From Acidobacteriota bacterium (GTDB taxonomy: Bacteria; Acidobacteriota; UBA890; WLXD01), in assembly GCA_965248695.1 (NCBI GenBank), contig CBDFKD010000002.1, positions 5,161,691 through 5,225,690 of the forward strand: a stretch of 64,000 bases of DNA. Reading direction: 5' to 3'. Made by a program: the position numbers and the translations under genes. Shown piece by piece: positions 1,835-56,029 of this stretch (position 1 is its first letter; every line of letters starts with the position of its first letter). The notes under the pieces are model-generated. The model had not been told where the DNA came from, searched no databases, and worked only from the letters and a program-made list of their open reading frames with translations.

Positions 1835-3238
1835 GAGATATAACCGGAAGTTGTGGATGGGAGGAAAAAGAAAGGCGGCGTAACCTTCGCTGGGATCATC
1901 AACAACCAGCAGCCGGCTGTGGAGGCCGGGAAGGAGACGCCACTCGTGCTCAAGATTATCGGTGGATCGGACGCGGAGGAAGGACAGCTGACACTGGACG
2001 TCGATGAGCTCGCCCGGCAGGGCGCGCTGCAGATGCTGGCAACAGCACTGGAGTGGGAGGTTCAGGAGTATATCCAGAGCCACGCCGGGCAACTGGATGA
2101 AGCCGGCCGTCGGCAAGTGGTACGCAACGGTCGGGCTCGCGCACGCAAGATCACGTTGGGGTGCGGGACGGTGCAAGTAGCCGCGCCACGGGTCAACGAC
2201 AAGCGGCTCGACGAGCAGGGACTGAGGCAGCGGTTCAGCAGTCGGATCCTGCCGCCCTACATGCGGCGCTCGCCGAAGGTGGCGGAGGTGCTGCCGGTGC
2301 TGTACCTGCGGGGCCTGTCGACGGGCGACTTCAAGGAGGCGCTGCCGATCTTACTGGGACAGGAAGCCAGCGGGCTGTCGGCATCGGCGATCTGCCGGCT
2401 GACGAACGCCTGGAGCACGGAGTACGAGGCATTCCGGAAGCTGGATCTGTCCACCAAGCAGTACGTATACGTGTGGGCGGACGGTGTGCACTTCAACATT
2501 CGACTCGAGGATGATCGGCTGTGCACGCTGGTGATCCTGGGCGTTTTGCCGGACGGAACCAAGGAGCTCATCGCGGTCGAGGACGGGTATCGAGAGAGCA
2601 CCGAGAGCTGGGCGTTCGTGCTCCGGGAGCTGAAGCGTCGAGGCATGCGGGCGCCGCTCGTGGCAGTGGGTGATGGGGCGCTGGGGTTCTGGGCGGCGGT
2701 GCGGGATGTATGGCCCCAGACTCGAGAGCAACGATGCTGGGTGCATCGGCTTGGCAACGTGCTCGACAAGCTACCGAGGCGGCTGCAGGCCAAAGCCAAG
2801 CGCGCGCTGCACGAGATCATCGGTGCGCCAACGCGCGAGGATGCTCAGGAGGGCATGGCGCGGTTCGCAGCCGACTACGGCGCCAAGTACTCCAAGGCCG
2901 TGGCGTCGTTGCAACGCGACTCCGACAAGCTGCTGACGTTCTACGACTTCCCCGCCGACCACTGGGTTCATCTGCGCACGGCCAACCCGATCGAGTCGGC
3001 GTTCGCCACCGTACGCCTGAGACAACGCGTCACCAAGGGCGCCGGCTCACGCACCAAGGCGCTGACGATGGCATTCAAGCTCCTGGAGATGGCACAGCAA
3101 CGATGGCGCCGCATCAACGCTCCTCACCTCACTGCCCTCGTACTCGAGGGCGCCACATTCGTCGATGGAGTTCACCTGATCGCTAGCGAAGACGCCGCCT
3201 GAACAAATCCACCGATCCACAACATTTGCAAATAACTC
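1835..3238 (+). mobile_element. IS256-family insertion sequence (about 1.4 kb) flanked by 9-bp direct repeat gtgtcgact
   Basis: Imperfect about 30-bp terminal inverted repeats (gagatataaccggaagttgtggatgg vs rc gagttatttgcaaatgttgtggatcgg, 22/31 identical); 9-bp TSD at 1826-1834 and 3239-3247; single mutator-type transposase inside. Confidence 0.8.
1853..3202 (+). CDS. IS256-family (mutator-type) transposase
   Basis: 449 aa; strong resemblance to IS256 transposases (…YVYVWADGVHFNIRLEDDR…CWVHRLGNVLDKLP…ANPIESAFATVRLR…). Confidence 0.9.
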   Translation: MDGRKKKGGVTFAGIINNQQPAVEAGKETPLVLKIIGGSDAEEGQLTLDVDELARQGALQMLATALEWEVQEYIQSHAGQLDEAGRRQVVRNGRARARKITLGCGTVQVAAPRVNDKRLDEQGLRQRFSSRILPPYMRRSPKVAEVLPVLYLRGLSTGDFKEALPILLGQEASGLSASAICRLTNAWSTEYEAFRKLDLSTKQYVYVWADGVHFNIRLEDDRLCTLVILGVLPDGTKELIAVEDGYRESTESWAFVLRELKRRGMRAPLVAVGDGALGFWAAVRDVWPQTREQRCWVHRLGNVLDKLPRRLQAKAKRALHEIIGAPTREDAQEGMARFAADYGAKYSKAVASLQRDSDKLLTFYDFPADHWVHLRTANPIESAFATVRLRQRVTKGAGSRTKALTMAFKLLEMAQQRWRRINAPHLTALVLEGATFVDGVHLIASEDAA

Positions 3239-3266: not shown

Positions 3267-5261
3267 TCAGGTCCGCTCCGCCCACGGATACTGGAACTCC
3301 GGCCTGATCACGTCACCGATGAGGTCCTGAACGGCGCGATGCGCTTGATCCATCGCCGCATGCGTCAGGCTGGTGGCAGCGGCATCCGAGTTGGCCACGG
3401 CAATGCGACCAAATCGCTTCCGGCCGACCACCCAGGGGACCTCGTCGTAGCCCCATTCCGGGTCGTAGAGATCGTTGGCGCCGCCGGCATAGCCATGAGG
3501 CCATCGGTTGACGGTGATCGCGCTGATCTCCTCGGCGGGGTCGAAGCCGCCGCCTGCGAGGGCGCGCCCAAGCTCGTCGCGGATGCGGTACTCGAAGTAA
3601 TCGAACGATGTGGCGAGCAGCTCCTCGCGGCCGGCCCGGAACTGTTCCCTGGCAGAGAGACCAGGCTTGTGCGCGGGCATGCGCTGCAAGTGAAGCGGCT
3701 GAGGATCATCGGGGGTCCGGGCGCAGGTGTAGTCGCCGAGACTCCGATTCATGTCCAGCATCGCCGACCCGTGGTAGCAGCCGGGACCGTAGAAGCTGTT
3801 GATCCCGAGTGCCTCAAACGCCCTCCAGTTGCGCACCACGACGTTCGTGTAGACGAGCGGCTGGCGCACGGCCATCTTCAGCGCCGCCTTCTGCTCGTCG
3901 GGAAAGTCGGGACAGAGGTAGGGGATCATGGAGTTGTAGCAGGCCATGACGCAGGTGGCGCCGCGGGCCCGGTAGGCCTTGCCGTCACGCACGTAGGTGA
4001 CCTCGACCTCGCTGGCAGTGCGGCGCTCGCCGACGTGGCGGACGTTGACCACGGTGCTGTTGAGGCGGACGCGCGCGGCGCTGCCGTCTTCATCGATGGC
4101 GGCGTAGTCGACCGGCGTCGCCACCGAGTCTTCCATCGTCGTTCCCGGGAGAGCCTTCGGAATCAGCCATCTGACGATCAGTCGAGCGATCGCGGCATTG
4201 CCGTCGGGGAAGTGCACTCCCTCGCCGAAGTCGTTACCCTCGCCAAGCCAGCTCTCGGGCGGTCGCTCGAGACGCAGGCCGTCGAAGCCGGGCAGGGAGC
4301 CGGTGCGAAACGCTCCCCAGGCGCTATAGGAGTCGATCCTGGCCGCACCGTTGGAGCCGCCTTCAGCACGGCGCATGAAGAAGGGCATGACACCGGGATC
4401 GGCTTTGACGATCTTCAGAAGATAATCCTGGTAGCTCATCTTCCGCAGACGCGAGACCTTCTCATCGGAGGTCAATCCGGTTAGATAGTCGGTGTTGTCG
4501 TCGTAGGCGCGGGCGATATCGTGTTTGACGACATCAGTTAGCGGCGCATCGGCCAGGAACTGCGTCCATGTGAGCGTGCTACGAACCGAGCCCCAGCCGG
4601 CGGGATCTCCCACCGACAGGTGGTCGGCGCCGAACGTTTCCTGATCAAAGAAGACACCGGCCTGTAGGCCCATCTCGCGGTAAATGCTGCGATCGGCCGC
4701 CGTCGTCCGCAGGAAGCGTTGCTTGTCGATCCCGATGTCCTCCAGCAGCGCCTTTGCCTCGTGCGGGTAGCTGTTAGCGCCGTGGATCATCATCGTGCCG
4801 CCGTAGCCGATGACCAGCTTGCCATCGACCTCGAACTCGTTGCGCTTGGCGTGCCCGCCGAAGTCATCGTGATTGTCGAGAATCAGAATTCGCGCCTCCG
4901 GCAACGCCTTGCGGAAGAAGTACGCCGCCGACAACCCGCTCAGCCCACCACCGACGACGATGAGGTCGTAGCTCTCGCCGGTGTCCTCGGCGTTGTCCCA
5001 GGTCTTCCCATAGCGCATCTCGTGCGCTACTTCGTAGGAGCCCTCGTGACTGCCCCGCATGCCGGTGAGCCGCGGCGGGTAGTACTCGCCCGGCTGCGCT
5101 GCGGAAACGCCTGACCCGTTTGTCGAGCCCTTCGAGCCTGCGGGAGCCCCCGGCCTCCCGGCACCGACCAGGCCGCCGCCAATTGCGACGCTGGCCCCGT
5201 TGAGAAAATCCCGGCGGCTGATGTCACGGTCCATCCCGAGCTCTCGGTCAGTCTTGGTCAC
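3267..5261 (-). CDS. Tat-signal FAD/NAD(P)-binding oxidoreductase (SpdH/spermidine-dehydrogenase-like family, tentative)
   Basis: N-term twin-arginine motif SRRDFLNGASVAIGG; Rossmann dinucleotide motif DLIVVGGGLSGLSAAYFF; 664 aa; GTG start preceded by GAGGA. Confidence 0.6.
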   Translation of the reverse strand: MTKTDRELGMDRDISRRDFLNGASVAIGGGLVGAGRPGAPAGSKGSTNGSGVSAAQPGEYYPPRLTGMRGSHEGSYEVAHEMRYGKTWDNAEDTGESYDLIVVGGGLSGLSAAYFFRKALPEARILILDNHDDFGGHAKRNEFEVDGKLVIGYGGTMMIHGANSYPHEAKALLEDIGIDKQRFLRTTAADRSIYREMGLQAGVFFDQETFGADHLSVGDPAGWGSVRSTLTWTQFLADAPLTDVVKHDIARAYDDNTDYLTGLTSDEKVSRLRKMSYQDYLLKIVKADPGVMPFFMRRAEGGSNGAARIDSYSAWGAFRTGSLPGFDGLRLERPPESWLGEGNDFGEGVHFPDGNAAIARLIVRWLIPKALPGTTMEDSVATPVDYAAIDEDGSAARVRLNSTVVNVRHVGERRTASEVEVTYVRDGKAYRARGATCVMACYNSMIPYLCPDFPDEQKAALKMAVRQPLVYTNVVVRNWRAFEALGINSFYGPGCYHGSAMLDMNRSLGDYTCARTPDDPQPLHLQRMPAHKPGLSAREQFRAGREELLATSFDYFEYRIRDELGRALAGGGFDPAEEISAITVNRWPHGYAGGANDLYDPEWGYDEVPWVVGRKRFGRIAVANSDAAATSLTHAAMDQAHRAVQDLIGDVIRPEFQYPWAERT

Positions 5262-5353
5262 GGCATCCTCGGTCCGAGAAGTAAAATCGTGCGCTAGCGT
5301 TACAGAGACCTTACGTCAGCGCCAGAGGCGGCGATTGCGAGCGCCATATAGCA

Positions 5354-6052
5354 ATGAATGAAGTCATCGGTGCTGTTCATGAATTCCATGACGAAGAGTT
5401 CGCTGCAGGATGGGCTGACCGCTTCGTGCCGACACTCGAACGCCTGGAGTTGTTCGATGTCATGCTCGCCGAGCTGACGTCACGTGTGCCGCCGAGTGGC
5501 TGCGTGGTCGAGCTTGGAATTGGTCCAGGGTACTTGGCAGATCATCTGCTGAGAGCGATGTCCTCGGTTCGCTACTATGGCATCGATTCGTCCGATCCGA
5601 TGCTCGTCATCGCGCGGCAAAGGCTCGGGTCGCACTCAGCCCGAGTCACCTACATACAGGCTGATCTCCTAGCGGCCCATTGGTGGAGGGACATCCGCAC
5701 CCCGGTCGATGCCATCGTTTCAACCTGGGCGTTGCACGATCTGGGCTGCCAGGAGAGCGTCGAGGCAGTCTACGCTCGCTGCGCTCGCATGCTCCAGGAT
5801 GGGGGGATTCTGCTGAACGGAGACTTCATCAAGCCTGACAAGACCATGTACGAATATGAACCGGGTAGATTCGAGATAGCGCGACATCTCGCGATTCTGC
5901 GCCGTGTCGGGTTCACCAAGGCAGACTGCTTGGTCGTGCTCGAAGAGGAAACCGAATCGCCTACGGCGGCGCAGAACTACGCGTGCTTCAGGGCGGTAGT
6001 AGCCCGGACACATCAGAGCCCGGAGCCCGGCAGACGGAAAGGCTGCATATGA
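5354..6052 (+). CDS. Class I SAM-dependent methyltransferase
   Basis: Motif I VVELGIGPGY; 232 aa; stop overlaps start of next gene (ATGA). Confidence 0.6.
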   Translation: MNEVIGAVHEFHDEEFAAGWADRFVPTLERLELFDVMLAELTSRVPPSGCVVELGIGPGYLADHLLRAMSSVRYYGIDSSDPMLVIARQRLGSHSARVTYIQADLLAAHWWRDIRTPVDAIVSTWALHDLGCQESVEAVYARCARMLQDGGILLNGDFIKPDKTMYEYEPGRFEIARHLAILRRVGFTKADCLVVLEEETESPTAAQNYACFRAVVARTHQSPEPGRRKGCI

Positions 6053-8971
6053 AGCGTCTCTTGTCGACCGCACCCGCACTGGCCAGTGCGATCATCCTCT
6101 CGCTCACCGCAGGCGCCTGTTCCAGTCCCGACCCTGCTGACCAGACGCCGTCCGGCTCGGCCGTCGATCGGCCGCTGATGCCGGACTGGGACGCGGAGCG
6201 CAGCGAACGACTGGCGTTTTCCGGCGAGCCGTTTCGCACACCGGAGGGCTTTCGCGTCGAGGAAGTTGCCGGCGACGATCTCATCGGATCGGCCGTGAAT
6301 CTCACGTTCGCGTGGGATGGCCGCCCCATCGTGGCGCTCGAGCAACGGGGACTCGTAATTCTCGACGACGGCGACGGAGACGGTCGCTACGATCGAATGA
6401 CACGGCTCTCAGAAGAGATCAGCACCGCTCACGGCCTTTATGTGCTCGGCCCGGACGATCTGCTCGTGCATGCCGACGGGCCGAGTGATGGCCCCGGCCT
6501 CTATCGTGTGAGCGGCTGGCAGGAGGGTCCCTCGGAGAGCACGGTCGAGCTGCTTCGACGGTCGCGCGGAGGGATCCAGGAGCACGGTCCCCACACGATC
6601 ACCCGAGGCCCCGACGGAGCAATTTACCTGCTCTTCGGCAATCATGCCGTTCCCGACATCGAGCCCTCACAGCGCTCACCACTTCGCGCGCTCCAAGAGG
6701 ATCAGCTACTACCCGTCATTCTGGATCCACGCGGTCATGCAAACACCATTCGTGCCCCGGGCGGAACCATCTGGAGAGTCGACCTCGAGGCCGACTCCTG
6801 GGAGCTGTTCGCCGGCGGGCTGCGCAATCCATTCGACATGGCCTTTTCTCCTGCCGGCGGCCTCTTTGTCTACGAGGCGGACATGGAGTGGGATCGCAGT
6901 CTCCCGTGGTACCGACCCACGCGGGTCCTGCACGCGATCCCGGCCGGCGACTACGGGTGGCGAACCGGCTCCGGCAAAGTAGCGTTCGATAACATCGATA
7001 CGCTCCCCAGCGTCGCCGACGTCGGCCGCGGCTCGCCGGTGGGCGTGGCCTTCTACCGCCATCACGCCTACCCCGCGGCGTTCGACGGCGCGTTATTCCT
7101 AGGCGATTGGGCACGTGGCCGCATACGCGTTCTCTTTCCGCAGGAGCACGGCGCTAGCTGGCAGGGGGAGGCCGTCGACTTCGTTCTTCGAGAGCCTCTC
7201 AATGTGACCGACCTCGCGGTGGGTCCTGACGGCCATCTGTATTTCACCATCGGCGGTCGCCAGACCACTGGTGGGCTGTTCCGAGTGGTCTACGACGGAT
7301 CCGACGGTGGCGCCCGAGGGAGCATGCAAGGCGGTCAGGGGAGCGCTGTCGAGAGGGCCTTGCACCAGCCAATGCCGCGATCCGCCTGGGGCCGCGCGGC
7401 CATCGCACAGCAGCGAGCTGCGGCCGGGGCAAGCTGGGGAGAAGGCCTGCGCGACGCTGTCGAGGACACCGATCGATCGAGGTTGGAGAGACAGAGCGCG
7501 CTGGAGATCCTGCAGCTCTATGGCCCGCAACCGTCTGTTGACGATTTGCGGAGATTCCTGGCGGCAGATGATGCCGGCGTACGAGCTACCGTCGTGACCC
7601 ACCTGGGAACCCGAACCGGCCCTAGCGTCTACCGCGCACTGGCAGTCGCACTGGAAGACCCGGATGCGCGCGTTCGGCGCCGGGCGGCAGAGGCGCTGGC
7701 GCGCTCCGGGAGCGCTGGAGAGGGCGCAACCTGCGGACATCGAAGCTATCCTCGCCGGCCTGGTCGGCCTTCTCGACGACGAGGATCGGTTCGTTCGGTA
7801 CGCTGTCCGCGAGACGCTCGCTCGAGTGGACCCGGATCGCTGGATCTCCAAAGTGGATCTCGCCGGGCCACCTTCGAACGCCGCGTTCGAGGCGATGCTT
7901 GCCTTGGTTCTCCGTCCGGGCTTTCCCGATGCCGAGCTCGTCTTCGAACATCTGCGCCTTCACGTCCAATCACAACCCGGCGAAGTACTGCTGGGCTCCT
8001 ATTTACGCGTGCTCGAGCTCGCCCTGGTGCGCTCCAGGGACGCTGGGGTCGACAGCGTGGAGCTCGAGGGACTGGGCCAGTCCATGTTGGATTGGTTCCC
8101 CACGCAACGCCGCGAGCACAACCGCAAGCTCGAGCGCATCCTCGCCTACCTGGCTCCGCCGGGGGCGGTGGACGCGCTGACGGCAAGGTTGGCGCTCGGC
8201 CGGAACCAGGAGGACGAGATCCACACCCTCTACGCCTTGCGAGCGATCGAAGGCGACTGGAGCGAGGCCCAGCGACAGAGCGTCGTCACCTGGTTCGATC
8301 GTGCTCGAGCGTTCACCGGCGCAGCCAGCATGGTGGGCTATATCGACGCCCTCTGGCAGCGGTGGCTAGCGAACCTCTCCGACGCCGAGCGCGTGGCGGC
8401 GGTCGAACGCCGGCAGGTCTGGTTGAGCGCCGAGCGGGACAGGATCGCGGCACTGGTGGCCGACGAAGACCTGCCGAGCGAGGATGAGCGCCGCATGCTG
8501 CGTCAGATGAGCTTCGATGAGCTGGCAGAGTACGTCGAATACGACGTCATGGCCTACGAGCGCTTCGACCCTGCGCACGGCGAACGCGTCTTCCAGCGTG
8601 CCCGTTGTGCCGACTGCCACGTTTTCGGCGATGTCGGTCGCGGTGGCGGACCCGACCTCTCGACCGTCGTCAGTCGCTTCAGGCGGCGCGAGATCCTGGA
8701 GTCGATCGTCTACCCGTCACGGGTGATCTCCGACCAGTACAGTGCCCTTCGCGTCCGCCTCCGTGACGGACGGAGATACGTCGGCATGCACGCCGCCGAG
8801 AGCGAAGAGGACCTCGTCCTGATCACCGCTACGGGCGAACGGGTCGTCCTGGACAAACAGCTGGTCAGCGAGCGCGAGCCGGCCGACGTATCCCTGATGC
8901 CGGAGGGTCTACTCGAGGCCATGAGCTTCGACGACTTGATGAGCCTGATGCGATACCTGGAAGAAGGGTAG
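6049..8971 (+). CDS. PVC-type heme-binding CxxCH protein with membrane-bound-dehydrogenase and HEAT-repeat domains; apparent frameshift near 7720-7740 (possible pseudogene or sequence error)
   Basis: Lipoprotein-like signal MKRLLSTAPALASAIILSLTAGAC; HEAT-like repeats (DPDARVRRRAAEALA); C-terminal cytochrome c motif CADCH; reading frame switches from frame 1 (5983..8487 ORF) to frame 2 (7664..8971 ORF) around RSG/AQPADIEAILAGL. Confidence 0.6.
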
Positions 8972-9376
8972 GGCGGGCGGGTTCGAGCCCCAATGCGCCG
9001 TAACCAGGGACATGCCCTGGTGCTGGGTGAGCGGCGTAGTCTACGGCCTGGGGCACTGAGGTTTCCGGCCGCCGTGCACGCGAGCCTGGCTACGGCGCAC
9101 TGGGGCTCGAACCCGCCGCCGCGACCGAAGACACTTCTTGCCGGGCGGGCCGGTCGTGCCGCGAACTGAGACGCCGCGGCCCAGCGGTTCCGACGATCGC
9201 CCTCTTCCGTATTCCGGAGGCTGCCGCGACCTCAGGCGCTGCCGGGGAGGAAGTCGACACACCTCCTTCAACCAGCATCGCGTGCACGGCACACACCACC
9301 TAAAGGCGATGACGCGCGAGCAAAGGAGTTCCCCTAGCGCCAGGCGATGACGCTGGTAGAAGGAGGTGTGTCGACT
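8972..9376. repeat. Structured intergenic repeat element, copy B (intact)
   Basis: Homolog of 1377-1834; stem 1 gggttcgagcccc/ggggctcgaaccc and stem 2 gaagtcgacacacctccttc/gaaggaggtgtgtcgac are perfectly complementary; lies between convergent genes. Confidence 0.6.
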
Positions 9377-9419
9377 TGCTCCGCCCTCGTCTCAATCCCG
9401 CTCGCCTGATACCGAAAGA

Positions 9420-10901
9420 TCAATCGCCCGTTTGGCCGAACGTCTCCATGTACCACTTCACGAACCGAGCCGGGCTCCCCTCGTGAGTGGCGTAGCGGCC
9501 AGCGCTGTAGCCGCCCGACTGGATACCGAGGTGGTTGTTGCCGGTAAGCCAGATGTCTTCCATCGTCGTGACGTGCCACAGCGCCTTGAGCTCGTCCGGA
9601 TCGTAGTCGCGCCCCTCGACCGCATCCGGATGCACGAGCCAGATGACCTCGTTGTCGGTTCGGTCGTGCGCACGCGGTGTGTATCGGGCGATCATGACGT
9701 GGTCGTCGTAGCCCTGCCAGTAACCGGTTTGCCAGCGGGTCGTGGCGATATCGGTCTCATGGGTCCACGCGATCCTGGTTGGCAGGAGAGGAGCGACGGG
9801 GTTGCCATCCATGGACCCAGTGACGAACCCCGGGTTGAGCTCGCCGTCAACGTCGCCATAGCCGCCCATGCCTGACGCCCGTCGTTCGGCCGCTGCCGGG
9901 ACCCACTCGTCGACCGCCGTCGCGTGGGCGGCCTTCTGTTCGTCGGTGCGCTCTTCGTCGTAGTTGTGCGCTTTCACCAAGGACCCGTGCGCTGGTCCGC
10001 AGTGGTAGCACTCGATGAAGTTCTCCGTCGCGAGCTTCCAGTTCGACTTCAGCGGGTAGTACTCGCGGGCCGCGACCTTGAGCTTGTCGAAGCGGTAAAT
10101 TTCGTTCAGCGCTCGCACACGAGTCACGGTCGATTCGAACTCGGGGGGCGAATCCGATCGAGATAGATTGATGAAGATCTGGCCAGCGGCGACGCGCACA
10201 TGGCAGGGGAGAAGTCCGTTGTCCGCCGGGTCGAAATCGTCCTGCATGCCATAGGCGTAGATCAGACTTCCTTCGGTGTCATACGTCCAGGCGTGGTACG
10301 GACAGCGGAACACCGGCGAGTTGCCGTTCTGGCCAAGCTGCTTCACTGACAAGCGTGGATCCTGCGGCCTCGTATCCGCGTCGTGGCGGCACACCCGTGA
10401 GCCGCGGTGCCGGCAGACATTGTGGAAGGCGCCGACACTTCCGGTCTGGCTACGAACGAGCAGGATGCTCTCCGAGCGCCCGAACTCGAAAACGAAGAAA
10501 TCGCCCGGGCTCGGAATGCGGCTCGCCTGGTCGACGTACTGCCAGAGATTCTCCGCCAGGAAAGCCTCCTCCACCGCATAGTGCTTCGGGTCCAGGTAGT
10601 ACTCGGCCGGAATCGTGGTGCCTTCTTTCCAGCCGTTGATGCCGGCGTTCTCGGGCACGGTTACTGCGAACCGTGGCGCACCCTTGCCACCGTAGCCCGG
10701 TGCTTCCGCCGGCAAGTCTTTGCGGGCAACCGCAACCGGCGAGCCGATCGCATTCGCTGTTGATGGCCCCTGTGGTGGCGCACCGAACAGGGAGTTGGGC
10801 AAAGCGATTGCCGCGGTCCCAGCGGCTACCGAGGACTTGGCGAACGTGCGGCGGCTTACGCGCTGTCCGCCGTTGACGTCGTGACTGTCCTCGTTGCTCA
10901 T
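9420..10901 (-). CDS. Rieske non-heme iron oxygenase alpha-subunit-like protein with Tat signal
   Basis: Tat motif RRTFAKSSVAAGTAAIALP; Rieske 2Fe-2S motifs CRHRGSRVCRHD…CPYHAW; mononuclear iron motif ENFIECYHCGPAH. Confidence 0.75.
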   Translation of the reverse strand: MSNEDSHDVNGGQRVSRRTFAKSSVAAGTAAIALPNSLFGAPPQGPSTANAIGSPVAVARKDLPAEAPGYGGKGAPRFAVTVPENAGINGWKEGTTIPAEYYLDPKHYAVEEAFLAENLWQYVDQASRIPSPGDFFVFEFGRSESILLVRSQTGSVGAFHNVCRHRGSRVCRHDADTRPQDPRLSVKQLGQNGNSPVFRCPYHAWTYDTEGSLIYAYGMQDDFDPADNGLLPCHVRVAAGQIFINLSRSDSPPEFESTVTRVRALNEIYRFDKLKVAAREYYPLKSNWKLATENFIECYHCGPAHGSLVKAHNYDEERTDEQKAAHATAVDEWVPAAAERRASGMGGYGDVDGELNPGFVTGSMDGNPVAPLLPTRIAWTHETDIATTRWQTGYWQGYDDHVMIARYTPRAHDRTDNEVIWLVHPDAVEGRDYDPDELKALWHVTTMEDIWLTGNNHLGIQSGGYSAGRYATHEGSPARFVKWYMETFGQTGD

Positions 10902-11036
10902 CTACTTCGCCTCTCGACTATTCGAACGTTGGTCGACTCGCGCTTTCGCGAACTCGCCGAGCTTCAACGAACGAAAACCGCGGGAGCCGACGAGCAGATC
11001 GGCTCCCGCGGATTCACTAGCCAACTGACAGAAAGC

Positions 11037-12557
11037 TCAATCGCCGGCCTGGACAATCTCCTTCATGTACCAGTTGATGAAGCTCGACGGCCCGCCCTCG
11101 CGCGTTCCATACCGGCCGCCGCTGTATGCGCCGGACTCGACGCCGTCGTGGTTGTTGTCGGTGATCCAGATATCCTCCTGGATCGTGACGTGCCACAGCC
11201 CCTTGACGTGTTCCGGGTCGTAGTCACGGCCCTCGACTGCGTCGGGGTGCACCAGCCAGACGATCTCGGCGTCAGTGAACTTCTCGTTGCGCGGCGTGAA
11301 CCGAACCACCATGACGTGATCGTCGTAGAACTGCCAGTATCCGGTCGACTCTCCGGTGGTCGCGATGATCGTACGGTGGTCGCCTTCCTTTCTGCCGGGC
11401 AGCCAAGGTGCAGCCTGCTTGCCGTCGATCGTGCCAGTGACAAACCCCGGGTTGAGCAGACCAGTGAGGTTCTCATACTGGGGCTCGCCGCCCATACCTC
11501 CTCCGCCCATGCCGGCATCTTCATCGTCGCGACGACGACGGCTGTCCTCCGGAACCCAGTCCGCCACGGCAGCAGCCTTTTCGTTCATCTGCTGGTCGCT
11601 GAGGTCGTGGTCCCAATTGTGCGTCGTCACCAGGGGTCGGTGGGCCGGGCCGCAGTGGTAGCACTCCTTGAAGTTCTCGAGCGCCAGCTTCCAGTTGGCG
11701 TTGATTGGGTAGGACTCGCGCGCCGCGACCTTGAGGTCTTTCAAGCTGTACTCGGGGGCCAGCCGCCTGAGGGCGGTAACTGCCGAATCGAAATCCGGCG
11801 GCGTGTCTGACTTCGACAGGTTGACGAAGATCTGGCCTTCGGTAACCCGCGTGTGGCACGGGAGCAAACCGTTGTCGGCCGGGTCGAAGTCGTCCTGCAT
11901 GCCGTAGGCGTAGATAAGGCTGCCCTCGGTGTCGTATGTCCAGGCGTGGTACGGGCAGCGGAACACGGGTGAGCTGCCGCTCTGGCCGAGCTGCTTGACC
12001 GACAGACGCGGATCGCTCGGCTTCGAGTCGGAGTCGTGACGGCACAATCGCGATCCGCGGTGACGACAGACGTTGTAGAACCCGCGCACCTCGTTGTCCT
12101 GGCCTCGAACGATCAGAATGCTCTCGGAGCGACCGAACTCGAAGACGTAGAAGTCGCCCGGGTTCGGAATGCGGCTCTCCTGGTCGGTGTACTGCCAGAA
12201 GTTCTCCCCGACGAATTTCTCGTCGGCTTCGAAATGCTTCGCCTCGATGTAGTACTCGGCGGGAATCGTCAGGCCCTCTTTCCAGCCGTTGACGCTCGCC
12301 TTCTTGGCCACCGGGCCGGTGAGCGGGGCTGCGCCCCGGCCGCCGTAGCCAATGTTCTCGTTGCGCGCTTCGACGCGCGCGGCGCGGCCATAGGTGGCCG
12401 TGGTTGCGGTCGTCGTTGCGGCCGTTGCCGGGGTAGCGCCGAAAAGCGATTTCGGGAGAGCGACGGCGGCGGTGCCCGCGGCAACCGAGGACTTGGCGAA
12501 CGTGCGGCGGCTTACGCGCGGCCCGCCGTTCTTGTCGTGGTCGTCCTTCTTGCTCAT
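11037..12557 (-). CDS. Rieske non-heme iron oxygenase alpha-subunit-like protein with Tat signal (tandem paralog)
   Basis: Start ATG at 12557 with AGGAGA RBS; Tat motif SRRTFAKSSVAAGTAAVALP; CRHRGSRLCRHD…CPYHAW; ENFKECYHCGPAH. Confidence 0.75.
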   Translation of the reverse strand: MSKKDDHDKNGGPRVSRRTFAKSSVAAGTAAVALPKSLFGATPATAATTTATTATYGRAARVEARNENIGYGGRGAAPLTGPVAKKASVNGWKEGLTIPAEYYIEAKHFEADEKFVGENFWQYTDQESRIPNPGDFYVFEFGRSESILIVRGQDNEVRGFYNVCRHRGSRLCRHDSDSKPSDPRLSVKQLGQSGSSPVFRCPYHAWTYDTEGSLIYAYGMQDDFDPADNGLLPCHTRVTEGQIFVNLSKSDTPPDFDSAVTALRRLAPEYSLKDLKVAARESYPINANWKLALENFKECYHCGPAHRPLVTTHNWDHDLSDQQMNEKAAAVADWVPEDSRRRRDDEDAGMGGGGMGGEPQYENLTGLLNPGFVTGTIDGKQAAPWLPGRKEGDHRTIIATTGESTGYWQFYDDHVMVVRFTPRNEKFTDAEIVWLVHPDAVEGRDYDPEHVKGLWHVTIQEDIWITDNNHDGVESGAYSGGRYGTREGGPSSFINWYMKEIVQAGD

Positions 12558-12816
12558 TTGCGTTCTCCTGGGCCGCGGCAGCGGTGATCGGTCTGGAAGT
12601 CCAGAAGTTCTCCCTCGGCGCCTGGTGCCCGGAAGCGGCACTCACCCCACTTACGCACGCGCAGAGAACCTACTTTCACTTGTCTAGGTACTACGGTTGC
12701 GGCCGCACTACAACTGGCCGGGCGCCGACCTCCGTATCTTTATCCGGAGCCGGAGCCGCAGCACCTCCTGCTGCATCTATCATCCTTCCATGCCGGTGAA
12801 CGGTCGACCGTACCCC

Positions 12817-14630
12817 TCAGGTACGTTCCGCCCAGGGGTATTGGAACTCGGGACGAATCACGTCGGTCAGCAGCTCCTGCACGGCGCGGTGTGCCTGCTC
12901 GAAGGCCGCCTGGGTTAGCGAGATGGCTGCGGCGTCCGAGTTGGCGATCGTGATGCGCCCGAAACGCTGTCGCCCAACGACCCATGGCGCCTCGTCATAA
13001 CCCCAGTCGGGGTCATACAGGTCATTGGCGCCGCCCGCATAGCCATGCGGCCAGCGGTTGACGGTGATCCCGGCAATGTCGCGCGCCGGGTCGAACCCGC
13101 CGTCGCCGAGCGCCCGGCCGAGCTGGTCGCGGATGCTGCGCTCGAAGGTCTCGAAGCTTGTCGCCTGAAGCTCCTCGCGTCCAGCGCGAAACTGATCTCG
13201 CGCCGACAGTCCGGGCCGAATGGGAAGGCGCTGCAGCCACAACAGGATGGGCTCGTCGGGAGAGGCGGAATGGCGGTAGTCCCCGACGTTGACGCCCCAG
13301 TCCAGATCGATGAACTCGTGGAACCCACCCGGGCTGTGGATGGCACCGACACCCAGGTTGGCAAACGCCGTCCAGTTCTCGATCGCAACCTGCGTGTAGA
13401 CGTACGGCTTCCGTACCGCCAGCTTCAGGGCCTCCTTCTGTGCCTCCGGAACCTCCGGACACAGGTACGGAATCATTGCGTTGTAGCAGGCCATTACGCA
13501 GCTGCCGCCGCCGACGCGGACCGCCCGCCCGTTCTGCACGTAGGTCACCGCGACCTCGTTGGCTGCGCGTCGCTCGCCCGCGTGGCGCGCACTCACCACC
13601 GTGCTGTTGAGACGGATGCGTACCGGATTGCCGGCCTTGTCCAGCTGCGAGTAACGGATCGGCGTGGTTACCGAATCCTCCATCGTCGTCCCCGGCAGCG
13701 CCGCCGGAATGAGCCAACGGACCATTAGCCGCGCGATGCTGGCATTGCCGTCCGGGAAGTGAATTCCCTGGAATGGGTTGTCGCCCGGGGCAGCGTTGCG
13801 CGCCGGACGTTCGAGACCCTCATCTTTCGCAGTCGGGCGATCTTCTCCTCGTCGCTCAACTCCGGTAAATAGTCGCGGTTCTCGGTATAGAGCTGCAGGA
13901 TGCCCGCCTTGGCGGCTTCCGATAGGGGTGTTTGGGCAAGGAAGTCGGTCCAGCGACGGCGCGCCTGGGCACCGCGTGCCCGCCTTGGCTCGCCGACGAC
14001 CAGGCGGTCTGTGCCGAAGGTCTCGCGGTCGAAGAACACGCCGCCGCGCAGACCCATCTCACTGTAGAGGTCGTTCGCCGAGCCGCCAGGGAAGCGCTCC
14101 GCGCTCACGCCGATATCCTCGAGGAGATCCTTGGCCTCCGCCGGATAGTACCCGGTGATGAATTGGGTGCCGCCGTAGCCGATCAACTGCCGGTCGCCGA
14201 CGGTGAACTCGACGCGTTTGGCATGCCCACCGAAGTCGTCATGATTGTCGAGAACGAGCACCCGGGCTTCGGGGAGCGCCTTGCGAAAGTAGTAGGCGGC
14301 GGCAAGGCCACTGAGCCCGGCGCCGACCACCACCAGGTCGTACTGCTCGCCCGATTCCTCTGCCTCGTTCCAGGTCTTGCCGTAGCGCATCTCGTGCGCC
14401 ACCTCGAAGGAACCGTCGTGGCTGCCGCGCATGCCGGTGAGCCTCGGCGGGTAGTAGCTTTCCGGGTCCTGTGTGGGCGTCGCATGGCTGCCTGGGGGCT
14501 GGCCGGTAGGCACGGTGGCGGAGGCTCCAATCGCTGCTGCCGAGCCTCCAACGGCGACGCTGCTGCCGTTAAGGAAATCCCTTCGAGTGATTCGGCGGTC
14601 CATACCAAGCTGCTTGTCAGTCCTTTTCAC
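12817..14630 (-). pseudogene. Disrupted paralog of the Tat-signal FAD oxidoreductase (internal deletion of about 215 bp causing frameshift)
   Basis: N-part (13725..14630) and C-part (12817..13725) are each collinear with gene 3267..5261. The junction RLRKM|GLERP skips about 70 aa of the intact paralog and the downstream frame is out of register. Confidence 0.65.
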
Positions 14631-14778
14631 GGTCGAGTCCCCTTCTCCAGTTTTCGATCGGATACGGCTCGGTATGGACTTCCTGCGCCGGGATACTGGA
14701 CTTCTTGCGCCAGATTGGAAACCCTGTACGGCACTCAGCGAGTTTCTTTGCGCGGTCCCACCGGTGAGGAGGTACGAG

Positions 14779-15288
14779 ATGCGGCAGGTTCAAGGAATGG
14801 GGAAGCTCATAGTGGTCATGGTCGCGGCGGTGTTTGTCGTTGCTTGCGGCGACAGCGAGCCAGCACCGGAGCCGGAGCCAGAGCCCGAAGCGGCAATGCC
14901 GACCGCTGAGGACGAAGTGCGTGAACGGATGATGGAGTTTGTCGGCGCGTATGGCTCCAACGATGTGGAGGGCTACATCGGCTCGTTCGCGGCCGATGGG
15001 ACGCAGTGGTGGCCGGGTCGACGGGTGACGCGCGCCGAGTACCACGATCTGTGGAGCGGCGTTGTCGGCGGCGGCGGTGGTCTGACGGAAGCCAACATAA
15101 GCGATCTACAGATCCACACATCGCCCGGCGGCGACGGCGCGGTGGCATCGTACCTGCTGAAGGTGAAGCGCATCTCGGACGATCCCGAAAGCGTGGATGC
15201 CACTTACCAGATGTCGGCGACTTGGTTTAAGCGCGACGGAAAGTGGGAGATCATTCATTTCCACTGGAACCCTGTTACCAGCGGCTAG
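14779..15288 (+). CDS. NTF2-like/SnoaL-like (DUF4440-like) lipoprotein
   Basis: GGAGG RBS 7 nt upstream of ATG; lipobox VVACGDS; 169 aa. Confidence 0.5.
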   Translation: MRQVQGMGKLIVVMVAAVFVVACGDSEPAPEPEPEPEAAMPTAEDEVRERMMEFVGAYGSNDVEGYIGSFAADGTQWWPGRRVTRAEYHDLWSGVVGGGGGLTEANISDLQIHTSPGGDGAVASYLLKVKRISDDPESVDATYQMSATWFKRDGKWEIIHFHWNPVTSG

Positions 15289-15303
15289 CAGCTCAGGGAG
15301 ACG

Positions 15304-15795
15304 TTGATCGAGATGCGACAAGCAATCGGACGATCTTTGCTGGTAGCGGTCGGCGCGATGGCCATGTTTGCTGCTTCCGCAGCGACCGCGCAGGAGCCTG
15401 AGGTTCTCGAGCAGGAAGTGCGCGATGCTGTCGAGCAGCTCACCGCCACCTACGCTGCGAACGACATCGACGGCTACTTCGCGCTCTACGCACCCGAGCT
15501 CACCTGGTGGGGGCCGAACGGCAGGTGGGACAAGGGGTCCTATCTGGCGTACTGGACCGAGTACATCGAATCTACCGGCGGCCTTGCCTCGGCAGAGAAC
15601 ACCGATGTACAGGTCGCGGTGTCGCCGAGCGGGGATCTGGCGTCAGCGTCGTACCTGCTATCGGTCACACGGGCCAACCCCGGGGATGCGCCCCCGGCGG
15701 TGACCTACCAGATGTCGCCGACCCTGGTGAAACGCAGTGGCAGCTGGACGATCGTCCATCTCCACTTCCAGGTGGTGCCGGAGCCTGAGGAGTAG
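15304..15795 (+). CDS. NTF2-like/SnoaL-like secreted protein (tandem paralog)
   Basis: Signal peptide; shares YQMS..W.KR.G.W.I.H.H motif with previous gene. Confidence 0.5.
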   Translation: MIEMRQAIGRSLLVAVGAMAMFAASAATAQEPEVLEQEVRDAVEQLTATYAANDIDGYFALYAPELTWWGPNGRWDKGSYLAYWTEYIESTGGLASAENTDVQVAVSPSGDLASASYLLSVTRANPGDAPPAVTYQMSPTLVKRSGSWTIVHLHFQVVPEPEE

Positions 15796-15845
15796 ACAGA
15801 CAGGTCGCGCCGGCGGTCCGGTGGCGCAAGGGGGAAAGGCAGGCA

Positions 15846-17801
15846 GTGTCCAATCTGCAGCGGCTCATCGGCTGTGGTGTCGTGCTGGCGATGGTCGGCG
15901 GAGGGCCAATCGCCCTGCACGCCGAAGACGATCGTCCTCCCGGCGAATGGCCGTACTTCGGCGGCGACAAGGCGTTCACGCGCTACTCGGCCCTGGCGCA
16001 GATAAACAGCGACAATGTCGCCGACCTGCAGGTGGTCTGGCGTCGCCCGGCGGTCGACCAGGCGTTTCGGGATGCCTACTCGGAGGTACGCATCCCGGGC
16101 TACTTCCGGTCGACGCCGATCATGCTGGAGGGACTGCTGTTCGCACCCAACGGCGTCGGTCTACTGCGGGCGCTGAACCCGGCGACCGGCGAGACGGTCT
16201 GGGAGCAGGAGCCGTTCGCGCCGACGGTCGGTGAGGCGCGCGGCCGAAGCCCGCGCGGCATCGACACCTGGACCGACGGGACGGATCGGCGGCTGTTCTT
16301 GGTACGCAACGGCCATCTGTACGCCCTCAACGCGCGTACCGGAGAGCCGTACGCCGACTTCGGTGTTCGGGGACGTCTCGATCTGAGCTTCGCTGAGCAG
16401 CGCGCCGGCAGTTTCCGCTGGTCCGCCGGTCCCATCGTCGTGGGCGACGTCATCGTCATTGCCGGAATCACCGGCGGCGCTGGGGACGGCGGCAACCGCA
16501 AGGAGGCCGTGCCGGAGGACGTGCGCGGTTACTCGGTTCGCACGGGCGAGCTGCTGTGGACGTTCAACGTGGTTCCGAAGCCCGGTCAATTCGGCAACGA
16601 CACCTGGGGCGAGGATTCCTGGAAGTCATCCGGCGATCTGGGCTCGTGGTGCTGCGTGACCGCCGACGAGGATCTGGGCTACGTGTATATCCCGCTGACG
16701 GCGCCAACCGCGGCGTACTACGGGGGGCACCGGCCGGGCGACAACCTGTACTCCAATTCATTGGTCGTACTCGACGCCAAGACCGGCAAGCGGGCGTGGC
16801 ATTTCCAGATGGTGCATCACGATGTGTGGGAGTACGACACGGTAGGCCCGGCGACGCTGGGCGAGATCACCGTTGATGGCCGGCGGATCAAAGCCGTGAT
16901 GCAGCCCAGCAAGACGGGTTTTCTGTATGTTTTCGACCGTGCGACAGGGGAGCCTGTGTGGCCGATCGAGGAGCGCCCGGTGCCGCAGTCGAACGTCCCT
17001 GGCGAGCGCCTGTCGCCGACGCAGCCGTTCCCGACCAAGCCCCCGCCGTTCGACATGCAGGGCTTCTCCGAGGACGACCTGATCGACTTCACGCCGGAGC
17101 TCCGGGCGCGAGCGCTCGAGCTCGTGGAGCCGTTCCTGCTGGGCCCGATGTTTACCCCGCCATCTGCGACTGCGGACGATTCGGATGGCAAGCAGGGCAC
17201 GCTGATCAGTCCGGGGGCCTGGGGTTCGGGCAACTGGAATACCGGGGCCTTCGATCCCGAGACCGGGTTCTACTACGCCGTTTCGCACACGATGCCAAAC
17301 GTCTATCCGCTGTCCAGCCCCGACGATCCGGAGGCCACGATCGATTACGAGTGGGGTGATGGGCCCGGCGTCCCGACCATCGATGGGTTGCCGATCTTCA
17401 AGCCCCCGTATGGCCGCATCACGGCCTACGACATGAATCGCGGCGAGCAGGTCTGGATGGTGGCCAACGGTGATGGTCCGCGTGACCATCCACTGCTCGA
17501 GGGGCTCGACGTTCCGCCGCTCGGCATGCTCGGCCGGCCGGCGCCGTTACTTACCAAGAGCTTGCTGTTCCTCGGTGAGAGCAGCGATGCCATCCTCGGT
17601 ATCAGCGTCAACGGCAACAAGTTCCGCGCCTACGACAAGGCCGACGGCAACGTCCTGTGGGAGACGGAGTTGCCCGCCGGCGTCACCGGCGCCCCGATCA
17701 CGTATCTGTACGAGGGCCGGCAGTACATCGTCGTCGCCGTCGGCGGCAACGACGATCCGGCCGAGTGGGTGGCCTTCGCGCTGGACGGGACGACGGATTG
17801 A
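15846..17801 (+). CDS. PQQ-dependent dehydrogenase (quinoprotein alcohol/glucose dehydrogenase family)
   Basis: Signal peptide; hallmark WPYFGGDKAFTRYSALAQINSDNVADLQVVW; repeated beta-propeller W motifs. Confidence 0.8.
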   Translation: MSNLQRLIGCGVVLAMVGGGPIALHAEDDRPPGEWPYFGGDKAFTRYSALAQINSDNVADLQVVWRRPAVDQAFRDAYSEVRIPGYFRSTPIMLEGLLFAPNGVGLLRALNPATGETVWEQEPFAPTVGEARGRSPRGIDTWTDGTDRRLFLVRNGHLYALNARTGEPYADFGVRGRLDLSFAEQRAGSFRWSAGPIVVGDVIVIAGITGGAGDGGNRKEAVPEDVRGYSVRTGELLWTFNVVPKPGQFGNDTWGEDSWKSSGDLGSWCCVTADEDLGYVYIPLTAPTAAYYGGHRPGDNLYSNSLVVLDAKTGKRAWHFQMVHHDVWEYDTVGPATLGEITVDGRRIKAVMQPSKTGFLYVFDRATGEPVWPIEERPVPQSNVPGERLSPTQPFPTKPPPFDMQGFSEDDLIDFTPELRARALELVEPFLLGPMFTPPSATADDSDGKQGTLISPGAWGSGNWNTGAFDPETGFYYAVSHTMPNVYPLSSPDDPEATIDYEWGDGPGVPTIDGLPIFKPPYGRITAYDMNRGEQVWMVANGDGPRDHPLLEGLDVPPLGMLGRPAPLLTKSLLFLGESSDAILGISVNGNKFRAYDKADGNVLWETELPAGVTGAPITYLYEGRQYIVVAVGGNDDPAEWVAFALDGTTD

Positions 17802-18811
17802 CCGCGACAATCGAGCCCCTCCGCATCGGCTTCATCGGTGCCGGCGCAATGGCCACCTGGCAGGTGTACCCGTCGCTACACTTCGCGCCCATTCACCTGC
17901 AGGCGGTTTGCGATCGCGACGAGGCATTGGCCCGTGACACGGCCGGCAAGTTCGGACCGGGGCGCTGGTACACCGACTACCGGGAGATGTGGGCGAGCGA
18001 GGATCTCGAGGCGGTGATCGTTCAGATGCACCCGAAGCCGCGCCAGAAGATCGTGCTGGAGGCTCTCGAGGCCGGCTATCACGTCTTCATTCCGAAGCCG
18101 CCGGCCGCTTCATTGGTGGCAACGGAAGAGCTGGCCGCGGCGGCGCGCCAGGCGCGGCGGACGCTGATGGTCAACTTCCAGCGACGCTTCTGCTTCGGGG
18201 TTCGAAAGGCGCGAGAGATCATGGCGACCGAGTCGTTCGGTGCGATGAGCCAGTTCTTCGGCTCCTTTTGCTGCGGCATCTTCGATCCGGTCCGTGGCCG
18301 CGACTACGAAGACCCGATCCATGCGTACGTGCTCGATTTCGCGCCACACTATCTGGATATAGCCCGGTATATCGGTGGCGAGGTGCAGCAGCTGTCGCTG
18401 TTCCATCAGACGGCCGGTGAGGGCGTCGCGCTGGCCGTTGCCGTGGAGTTCGCAAGCGGTGCGGTCGGGACGCTGCAGCTCAACAGCCAGCGGCTATGGT
18501 GGCGTAACTACGACCGCATCGAGATCACCGGGCAGAGCGAGTACCTCGTTCTCGATGACCTGTGGTCGGTGAAGCACTACGGTCAAGAGCAGAATACCTT
18601 CACCGAGAACTGGAGTGATGAGCGGAGCGGCGAGCTCACCGGCGACGGTCCGTGTCTGAGCGAGTGGGTCAACGCCATCCGCGAGGATCGCGAGCCAGTT
18701 GGCAGCATCGCAGACGCGGTCCGGACCATGCGCTTGTATCAGGCAGTCTGGGACGCGGTCAGAGAAGGACGTTCGGGGGTCGTGTTCGATCGACGGACTG
18801 CTGCCGGCTGA
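17798..18811 (+). CDS. Gfo/Idh/MocA-family NAD(P)-dependent oxidoreductase
   Basis: TTG start overlapping previous stop; Rossmann RIGFIGAGAMA; 337 aa. Confidence 0.7.
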   Translation: MTATIEPLRIGFIGAGAMATWQVYPSLHFAPIHLQAVCDRDEALARDTAGKFGPGRWYTDYREMWASEDLEAVIVQMHPKPRQKIVLEALEAGYHVFIPKPPAASLVATEELAAAARQARRTLMVNFQRRFCFGVRKAREIMATESFGAMSQFFGSFCCGIFDPVRGRDYEDPIHAYVLDFAPHYLDIARYIGGEVQQLSLFHQTAGEGVALAVAVEFASGAVGTLQLNSQRLWWRNYDRIEITGQSEYLVLDDLWSVKHYGQEQNTFTENWSDERSGELTGDGPCLSEWVNAIREDREPVGSIADAVRTMRLYQAVWDAVREGRSGVVFDRRTAAG

Positions 18812-18815
18812 GCCT

Positions 18816-35990: not shown

Positions 35991-36280
35991 GAGCGTGACG
36001 TAGCACGCCATTAGGCTACGGCGGCTAACAGGGTCTCTTTAGATCCAGGGGGCCGCGCCCCGGTGGGGACGAATCGGAAGTAACCGAGCGTGACGCGGTG
36101 CGGTACGAAGCCGCGGCGGCTGGTGGATCTTGAAGGATCCAAGGGCCGTGCCCCGGTGGGGACGAATTCGGTAGTACTAAGACATATTCTGAGAGCGTGA
36201 CGTGGCACGCCATTAGGTCACGGCGGCTAACAGGGTCTCTTCAGATCCAGGGGGCCGCGCCCCGGTGGGGACGAATCCGC
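35991..36280. repeat. Three tandem about 100-bp repeat units, each with two hairpins, between scaffold and coat genes
   Basis: Units start at 35991, 36087, 36193; each ends ccagggggccgcgccccggtggggacgaat; units 1 and 3 near-identical, unit 2 diverged but hairpin-preserving. Confidence 0.8.
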
Positions 36281-36309
36281 AACTTCTTTTGTGGAGGAGT
36301 GCCCCGACA

Positions 36310-55946: not shown

Positions 55947-56029
55947 CCGTTACCACCACACTAAACCTCCCGCGCACGTAGTCGTCAACGCTGATCGGCC
56001 ACTCGGGTACAAAATAAGGCTGGAGCATT

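Follow-up and report, generated by a model that had tools for sequence, protein, structure and literature searches.

Here we describe two tandem genes for Rieske oxygenase (RO) alpha subunits, RO-1 and RO-2, in a stretch of 64,000 nucleotides from an Acidobacteriota bacterium (contig CBDFKD010000002.1, positions 5,161,691 to 5,225,690; GC ~64%), which is called the window below. A first-pass annotation of this DNA, made from the sequence alone, had proposed that both proteins carry twin-arginine signals and form a periplasmic oxygenase pathway supplied with electrons by cytochrome c or a pyrroloquinoline quinone (PQQ) dehydrogenase. The gene map was drawn from a listing of open reading frames (ORFs) together with Pfam and NCBIfam scans over 1-21 kb of the window, and every gene of the earlier inventory was present at its position. 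The oxygenase genes and the redox genes closest to the argument are as follows.

3267-5261, minus strand: intact SpdH homolog, matching PDB 7D9F with E 1e-148 and scoring 19.0 bits with the twin-arginine translocation (Tat) hidden Markov model (HMM) TIGR01409, TAT_signal_seq, whose cut-off is 16.7 bits.
9420-10901, minus strand: RO-1, Group V Rieske oxygenase alpha subunit of 493 aa, with PF00355 and PF00848.
10779-10901, minus strand: predicted twin-arginine signal peptide of RO-1, residues 1-41, with S16-R-R-T-F-A-K22, a weakly hydrophobic h-region and an LFGA end.
10338-10388, minus strand: clade-specific 17-aa insert of RO-1, RHDADTRPQDPRLSVKQ, between the CxH and CxxH ligands.
11037-12560, minus strand: RO-2, tandem paralog of RO-1, 507 aa, with PF00355 and PF00848.
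12817-14630, minus strand: SpdH-like flavocytochrome pseudogene, directly upstream of RO-2/RO-1 on the same strand.
15846-17801, plus strand: soluble PQQ dehydrogenase with a Sec signal, 651 aa, scoring 558.5 bits with PF01011.

To define the family of the two oxygenases, their catalytic residues were compared in an alignment of 104 homologs. The Rieske ligands C163/H165/C200/H203, the mononuclear iron site H300/H305/D400 and the bridging E297 were invariant, and profile searches found PF00355 and PF00848 (98-107 bits for the latter) in both proteins, which bears out the earlier description of complete Rieske and mononuclear-iron motifs. The segment E297-C298-Y-H300-C301, holding the ECxHC cysteine pair and the bridging Glu, was likewise invariant in the 104 homologs, and so were many pocket residues. 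Such a cysteine pair flanking the first iron-binding His, together with the bridging Glu, marks Group V quaternary-ammonium monooxygenases (PMC10952381). The closest PDB matches by sequence were 3N0Q, Stc2 and CntA, and the AlphaFold2 (AF2) model of RO-1 (predicted local distance difference test score, pLDDT, 81) matched Stc2/CntA-type folds in Foldseek with E values of 1e-32 to 1e-22. By these features, RO-1 and RO-2 belong to the Group V (Stc2/GbcA/CntA-type) Rieske monooxygenases. Orthology with GbcA was rejected, as the equivalog model NF058607 gave 225.0 and 233.3 bits against a cut-off of 670. The residue equivalent to CntA Tyr203 is Phe295. RO-1 and RO-2 are 63-65% identical with the same signal and motifs, and DNA repeats D1, D5-D7 and D9 connect their genes; the start of RO-2 was set from homologs P0003 and P0005 at 12560 (MSKKDD), not at the upstream GTG at 12641. 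Proteins of this clade are publicly annotated with the generic name 'aromatic ring-hydroxylating dioxygenase subunit alpha', and an exact-sequence look-up of RO-1 and of homolog P0015 found no record.

Both proteins begin with an N-terminal extension, which has the common sequence VSRRTFAKSSVAAGTAA(I/V)ALP. It is ordered as ~15 polar residues, SRRTFAK (16-22), the weakly hydrophobic stretch SSVAAGTAAIALP and a variable linker of ~50 aa, and the catalytic core follows from ~residue 90. Of the 104 clade homologs, 101 had RRx[FLIVM] with an uncharged run of 12 residues or more behind it, and 77 showed the stricter pattern [ST]RRxFx[KR]; the median uncharged run after the motif was 16 residues across the clade. 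The three homologs without the RR motif were truncated gene calls starting inside the h-region. In more than 100 sequences, the RR-x-F motif, the h-region and the variable linker were kept at 45-86% identity. When 165 loci were fetched, all N-terminally complete homologs of at least 43% identity carried the extension and the RR motif, and none of the ~130 relatives at 28-40% identity had either. The signal region of RO-1 was disordered in the AF2 model. All enriched neighbours of the clade ROs (see below) are themselves secreted, by Tat, Sec or lipoprotein signals. From this motif conservation we infer that RO-1 and RO-2 are very likely exported to the periplasm by Tat.

A neighbour-joining tree showed that the signal-bearing ROs form one monophyletic clade nested among cytoplasmic GbcA/Stc2-like enzymes. 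The first-pass annotation had raised the case of ROs that cluster with cytoplasmic oxygenases, and the tree gave them a clade of their own. The clade is compact, with a handful of clusters at 50% identity in a family of ~4,100 clusters at E <1e-10, and comprises more than 100 clusters at 90% identity. Its members come mostly from uncultured Acidobacteriota, often with several paralogs per genome, and also from Woeseia and other Gammaproteobacteria. All Tat-clade members and no cytoplasmic relatives had an insert of 17-27 aa (RHDADxxPxDPRLSVKQL) between CxH and CxxH; that of RO-1 was modelled with low confidence (pLDDT 54-60) and no usable geometry. In YeaW, the CntA ortholog, the residues implicated in reductase docking (Arg83, Lys104 and Lys117) surround the CxH/CxxH ligands (PMC9508527). 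Because these docking residues map around the CxH...CxxH region, the clade insert is predicted to remodel the partner-docking face. A variable Gly/Met/Asp-rich loop with a GMGG core was also found in the catalytic domain of nearly all Tat-clade ROs and of no cytoplasmic relatives, for example at residues ~343-352 of RO-1 (window ~9846-9875), as DAGMGGGGMGGEP in RO-2 and as GMGGEGMDGEGMDGEGMDD in locus L081. As a side observation, this loop is similar to Met-rich loops known from periplasmic proteins that bind Cu(I) or act as antioxidants. The additional Cys that follows the first Rieske motif (SRLC) was rejected as a clade marker, since cytoplasmic relatives carry SRLC too.

For the comparison of gene neighbourhoods, all ORFs from 31 clade loci (0.50 Mb) were clustered against those from 134 loci of cytoplasmic relatives (1.67 Mb), and differences were assessed by Fisher tests. 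The results showed that SpdH-like flavocytochromes were present at 11/31 clade loci and 2/134 cytoplasmic loci (p 1e-7), PQQ dehydrogenases at 11/31 and 1/134 (p 2e-8), and a monoheme cytochrome c of 150-190 aa at 11/31 and 0/134 (p 2e-9). Dimethylglycine-dehydrogenase-type genes (DAO+GCV_T) went in the opposite direction, with 1/31 clade loci and 52/134 cytoplasmic loci (p 3e-5). At least one of the three partners was found in 24/31 clade loci and none in 7/31. The neighbourhood conservation that the first-pass annotation had proposed to check was found for the SpdH-like and PQQ dehydrogenase families. PQQ dehydrogenases are periplasmic and normally reduce c-type cytochromes, and the periplasm contains no NAD(P)H. 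The enriched neighbours are periplasmic electron donors or carriers, so they match the need of an oxygenase in a compartment without NAD(P)H.

The recurrent small cytochrome c has CxxCH, a conserved MP, a signal or lipoprotein leader and a match to PF13442. Operon-like orders were observed as SpdH, RO and cytochrome c in L087; PQQ dehydrogenase, RO and cytochrome c in L082 and L168, with an NTF2-like gene next in L168; RO, cytochrome c and an NTF2-like gene in L089; and RO followed by SpdH in L096, L005 and L007. In L087, L088, L093 and L094 the cytochrome ORF, called as the longest ORF, overlaps the RO stop codon; the true cytochrome start may lie slightly downstream, hence the two genes would be adjacent or overlapping. 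The cytochrome also stands directly after the RO where no dehydrogenase lies within 10 kb (L091, L097). In a reciprocal test, 3/3 members of the cytochrome family, chosen blind, adjoined an RO and a PQQ dehydrogenase. The association of signal-bearing ROs with periplasmic dehydrogenases and small cytochromes is drawn from ~35 loci related to the window. Less frequent neighbours that were enriched in clade loci or seen only there included TonB-type outer-membrane proteins and amidohydrolases as well as arginase-family, amidase and formamidase genes.

Two further observations were made in these loci. An Amt ammonium transporter gene was found in L082 (4662-6053), L168 (891-2294) and L004 (~18143-19489), and its position adjoining a PQQ-RO-cytochrome c operon fits the idea that ammonia or methylamine is set free in the periplasm. 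Between the PQQ dehydrogenase and the RO, a two-gene module was present in 5/31 clade loci and 0/134 controls (L081 7588-9824; L002 1357-3696; L009 5628-7868, where the genes are fused; L090 2258-6123; L098 460-1722). Its first gene encodes ~294 aa with a weak PKD-like match, and its second encodes ~451 aa, in which the N-terminal region has a CxxCH and matches cytochrome c weakly, and the His-rich C-terminal domain falls in no Pfam family. The module may be a further periplasmic heme-linked redox enzyme, and it was absent from the 64-kb window by tblastn and CxxCH scan.

In the window, the intact SpdH homolog has the FAD motif VVGGGLSGL and the heme b ligand motifs FEVAH and NRWPHGY. The second SpdH copy (12817-14630) is a true pseudogene: tblastn showed that residues 276-330 (~55) are missing and that the frame shifts at 13815-13821. 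The N-terminal part of the pseudogene passed the TAT HMM at 21.6 bits, so that both flavoproteins passed this model, and the earlier reading of two Tat-signal FAD oxidoreductases, one of them decayed, stood with a deletion and a frame change now located in the second. The heme b histidines, FAD motif and Tat motif were kept in the window SpdH, in what remains of the pseudogene and in all full-length copies that were examined beside ROs. The window formerly held an SpdH-RO-RO operon, whose SpdH member has since been lost. In the SpdH of P. aeruginosa, FAD hands its electrons to a heme b that is exposed at the surface and has His54 and His562 as ligands, and the enzyme directly reduces cytochrome c in vitro and even electrodes (PMC12564564). 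The window PQQ dehydrogenase covered the full PF01011 model of an eight-bladed propeller; its nearest NCBIfam model was TIGR03074, whose membrane anchor it does not have, and both TIGR03074 and TIGR03075 were below their cut-offs. An ortholog of this dehydrogenase, 85% identical, adjoins an RO in L012. The other genes mapped in the window are listed below.

33-1376, plus strand: CehA/McbA-type metallohydrolase, 175 bits, at the edge of the window locus.
1853-3202, plus strand: Mutator-family transposase.
5354-6052, plus strand: S-adenosylmethionine (SAM)-dependent methyltransferase, by Pfam.
6049-8971, plus strand: PVC-type heme c protein with a propeller, HEAT repeats and a C-terminal CADCH domain, by TIGR02604 and TIGR02603.
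14797-15288 and 15304-15795, plus strand: two NTF2-like proteins (SnoaL_3/DUF4440), by Pfam.
~17795-18811, plus strand: Gfo/Idh/MocA oxidoreductase.
18816-19559, plus strand: ATP-binding cassette (ABC) ATPase.
19563-21118, plus strand: OpuAC-permease fusion (OpuB-like), frameshifted near 19950.

Several of these genes are not part of the recurrent neighbourhood. The PVC-type heme protein, the methyltransferase, the OpuB-like transporter, the Gfo/Idh/MocA oxidoreductase and a fatty-acid hydroxylase had no matches beside related ROs. The CehA-like hydrolase had one match among related loci (L096 6701-8017, 58% identical, ~2 kb upstream of the RO-SpdH pair), and the window transporter had one weak match (L074). 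All of them were treated as window-specific. The PVC-type gene passed TIGR02603 (92.8 bits against a cut-off of 68) and was below the cut-off of TIGR02604 (88 against 122); no other real ORF of the window contains a CxxCH. The first-pass annotation had taken this protein as a partner of the oxygenases; this was not supported, as the gene has no homolog in any related locus and is frameshifted here, and the recurrent cytochrome is the different monoheme protein of 150-190 aa. The adjacent OpuB-like transporter, which had been offered as a clue to the substrate, is also frameshifted and is not conserved beside related ROs. Rfam matched nothing but tRNAs in the window and had no match in seven related loci, so no riboswitch or other RNA clue to the substrate was obtained. 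Of the two NTF2-like proteins, both called lipoproteins before, only the first has a lipobox and the second has an ordinary signal peptide. A first tblastn search found no NTF2-like homologs in related loci, and jackhmmer later found two, directly downstream of RO-cytochrome c (L089 2223-2735 and L168 6569-7072). The beta subunits of ROs have an NTF2-like fold, and a structural or accessory role of the NTF2-like proteins is conceivable.

The window also bears marks of mobile elements and gene damage. The PVC-type heme c gene is split by a 1-nt frameshift near 7710 and the OpuAC-permease gene by a single-base frameshift near 19950, which could be genuine decay or assembly errors. Taken with the SpdH pseudogene and the transposase, they suggest local gene decay or long-read indel errors; the large prophage ORFs in the window are intact. 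An intergenic element of ~400 bp occurs twice (1397-1834 and 8993-9376) with ~80% identity between copies, one upstream of the Mutator-family transposase and the other between the PVC heme gene and RO-1, so that the locus is flanked by a transposase and a repeat element. Internal inverted repeats were found at 8967-9008/9085-9126 and 9246-9279/9349-9382, and the element may be a miniature inverted-repeat transposable element or an insertion sequence-associated repeat. A prophage-like block (27259-53670) contains two DNA methylases, a lysozyme-like gene, a large terminase (30310-31665), a portal-like DUF4055 protein (32072-33487), a P22-type coat protein (36265-37425) and a 1618-aa tape-measure protein (41755-46611). 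It is followed by tRNA genes at 55874-58828, of which ARAGORN found three (Arg, Ala, Ser) and Rfam confirmed two.

We favour, with moderate confidence, the reading that these enzymes are NAD(P)H-independent periplasmic Group V ROs fed by substrate dehydrogenases through exposed hemes. RO-1 and RO-2 would acquire their fold and cofactors in the cytoplasm before Tat carries them to the periplasm, where the two electrons per turnover would be supplied by periplasmic substrate dehydrogenases with exposed redox centres. The donors would be PQQ dehydrogenases and SpdH-type flavocytochromes b, the latter moving electrons from FAD to a heme b at their surface. The small His/Met monoheme cytochrome c, encoded right after the RO in many lineages, would probably be the electron relay, and the clade insert between the Rieske ligands would be a remodelled docking site for the heme partner. 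That the RO would receive its electrons from cytochrome c, PQQ dehydrogenase or SpdH is something we infer from gene context. The substrates are likely N-alkylated or quaternary amines, and their periplasmic dealkylation would let the cell scavenge nitrogen or carbon. The dehydrogenase may return the electrons by oxidising either what the RO has produced or a co-substrate amine. An amine or quaternary-amine substrate class is probable from the Group V ancestry, the pairing with an amine dehydrogenase (SpdH) and the nitrogen-related neighbours. The candidate donors left in the window would be the PQQ dehydrogenase (15846-17801) and the SpdH paralog that is still intact (3267-5261). Either the local system draws on one of them or on genes elsewhere, or it has partly degenerated.

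A more tentative extension, which we consider rather doubtful, is that the reactions form a closed periplasmic redox loop. In such a loop, the RO would dealkylate or hydroxylate an amine-type substrate to an aldehyde, an alcohol or a demethylated amine, and this product would be oxidised by the PQQ dehydrogenase or SpdH-type flavocytochrome. The electrons would return via the monoheme cytochrome c or the surface heme b to a Rieske cluster retuned for them, without NAD(P)H and without respiratory input. In this speculative scheme, the insert would retune both the cluster potential and the docking surface.

Several points weigh against the favoured reading. Canonical RO Rieske clusters lie at ~-100 to -150 mV, and His/Met cytochromes c and PQQ are positive. 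For SpdH, the heme onset is ~+60 mV vs the standard hydrogen electrode, converted from -0.14 V vs Ag/AgCl (PMC12564564). With donors so positive, transfer to the Rieske cluster would be uphill unless the cluster potential of this clade is raised. The adjacency of the genes could also reflect consecutive pathway steps rather than electron transfer. The neighbour enrichment is inflated, because SpdH and PQQ paralogs abound in these genomes and most of the control loci belong to other phyla. In the 64-kb window, the small cytochrome c family is absent by tblastn and CxxCH scan, the single heme c gene carries a frameshift and the SpdH beside the ROs is a pseudogene. Of the earlier proposal of a periplasmic oxygenase fed by cytochrome c or PQQ, the Tat-signal clade and the periplasmic redox neighbours held up, and its weak sides are that the PVC heme c protein is not conserved, that the transfer is read from context and that standard Rieske potentials run contrary to it.

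A different arrangement, which we regard as unlikely, is that the ROs are periplasmic and the neighbouring dehydrogenases and cytochrome c belong to the same amine or alcohol pathway with electrons going to respiration, the RO donor being an exported ferredoxin or a quinol-linked membrane protein encoded elsewhere. Reduction of cytochrome c toward respiration is an established activity of SpdH and PQQ dehydrogenases, the potential mismatch favours a donor of lower potential, the cytochrome gene of L086 overlaps the PQQ gene and not the RO, and seven of the 31 clade loci have none of the three partners. On the other side, no reductase or ferredoxin motif was found in any of the 31 clade loci scanned, the cytochrome stands directly behind the RO even without a nearby dehydrogenase, and the clade-specific change of the Rieske docking region argues for a changed partner. 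It would be quite improbable that the exported Rieske/iron protein is not a substrate oxygenase at all and acts as an O2-reducing electron sink or oxidase, or oxidises a substrate with electrons going outward to cytochrome c, as in the Rieske subunit of arsenite oxidase. The flow from Rieske cluster to cytochrome c is the usual thermodynamic direction for exported Rieske proteins, and the RO-cytochrome c pair is the most tightly linked unit; but invariance across the 104 sequences extends from the 2-His-1-carboxylate site and the bridging Glu to the Group V Cys pair and much of the pocket, which fits oxygenase chemistry, and we know of no RO-fold enzyme that is an O2-independent dehydrogenase.

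The location of the ROs bears on the least probable of the alternatives, to which we give very little credence, namely that they are cytoplasmic or anchored at the cytoplasmic face of the membrane, with a vestigial or non-export RR segment and a standard NAD(P)H reductase encoded elsewhere. It draws on the TIGR01409 search, in which the window's two ROs were not reported and homologs reached 15.1-15.4 bits against the cut-off of 16.7, a result that also weighs against the favoured reading. The Tat call for the ROs rests on motif conservation, because this HMM was below cut-off or silent; thus the twin-arginine signals claimed for both ROs were upheld by SRRTFAK in both proteins and the RR motif in 101/104 homologs, and not by the profile. 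The same alternative is helped by the reductase genes. A reductase or ferredoxin motif was found in none of the predicted genes at 24-64 kb and in no ORF at 1-24 kb of the window, in line with the first-pass annotation, which had seen none nearby; however, an adjacent reductase was present in only 3/134 loci of cytoplasmic relatives, so its absence is uninformative as a discriminator. What speaks against cytoplasmic ROs is that the motif, h-region and linker were kept in so many diverged sequences and that all enriched neighbours are secreted.

A search of the full-text literature found no report of an exported or periplasmic RO, or of an RO linked to cytochrome c, PQQ or SpdH. A literature match for 'Tat signal' concerned a bile-salt amidase and not a Rieske oxygenase, and a 2025 review of RO electron transfer had no mention of periplasm, cytochrome c, signal peptides, PQQ or SpdH. 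To our knowledge, none of the studied RO relatives has an export signal. ROs have been classified, engineered and assayed on the premise that their electrons are supplied in the cytoplasm by NAD(P)H, a flavin reductase and, in some cases, a ferredoxin. All these results suggested that members of a known enzyme superfamily work in a place, and with a supply of electrons, that had not been described for it. If the favoured reading is true, it would add a new electron-supply class to the Rieske oxygenase family and a cofactor-independent scaffold for biocatalysis, and the way in which positive-potential donors drive a Rieske oxygenase would become directly testable. Periplasmic breakdown of methylated or quaternary amines would then serve uncultured Acidobacteriota as a strategy for scavenging nitrogen and carbon, with a bearing on the turnover of methylamine and osmolytes.

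Among known systems, the window ROs are most like Stc2 (PDB 3VCA, 4QUP), GbcA and CntA (6Y8J) in protein architecture. They share the two-domain fold, the CxH/CxxH ligands, the HxxxxH...D iron site, the bridging glutamate and the ECxHC pair, and no beta subunit gene is evident, the window NTF2-like genes being outside the beta-subunit family. In contrast to these enzymes, with which they are only 28-30% identical, the window ROs have a ~90-aa N-terminal extension bearing a twin-arginine signal. Their clade has the 17-27 aa insert between the Rieske ligands and the Gly/Met loop, and its neighbours are periplasmic dehydrogenases and cytochrome c instead of betaine-catabolic genes such as dimethylglycine dehydrogenase. 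The SpdH homologs resemble P. aeruginosa SpdH (PDB 7D9F-7D9J) over the full length (E 1e-148), including the Tat signal, the FAD motif and both heme b ligands, whereas the Acidobacteriota family is strongly expanded, with many paralogs per genome, and is repeatedly operonic with an RO.

The proposed export of the ROs has a counterpart in the Rieske [2Fe-2S] domain of the bc1 complex and arsenite oxidase (AioB), which Tat exports in the folded state and which exchanges electrons with cytochrome c in the periplasm, an exchange here proposed for the ROs. However, the bc1/AioB proteins are small high-potential electron-transfer subunits without a mononuclear-iron domain, and electrons there run from the Rieske cluster to cytochrome c. 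In fungi, cellobiose dehydrogenase or a PQQ pyranose dehydrogenase drives lytic polysaccharide monooxygenases. This resembles the proposed system in that an oxygenase outside the NAD(P)H compartment is powered by a flavocytochrome b or a PQQ dehydrogenase through an exposed heme, although the proteins are unrelated, the oxygenase is a copper enzyme, the setting is eukaryotic and extracellular, and no homology is implied. In methanotrophs, the 'direct coupling' model of methanol dehydrogenase, cytochrome cL and particulate methane monooxygenase, itself debated, has a PQQ dehydrogenase that oxidises the product of the oxygenase and returns the electrons via a periplasmic c-type cytochrome, as proposed here, but the oxygenase there is a membrane copper enzyme. 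The fungal pairs and the methanotroph coupling are the closest functional analogies for the proposed periplasmic Rieske oxygenase driven by its neighbouring dehydrogenases.

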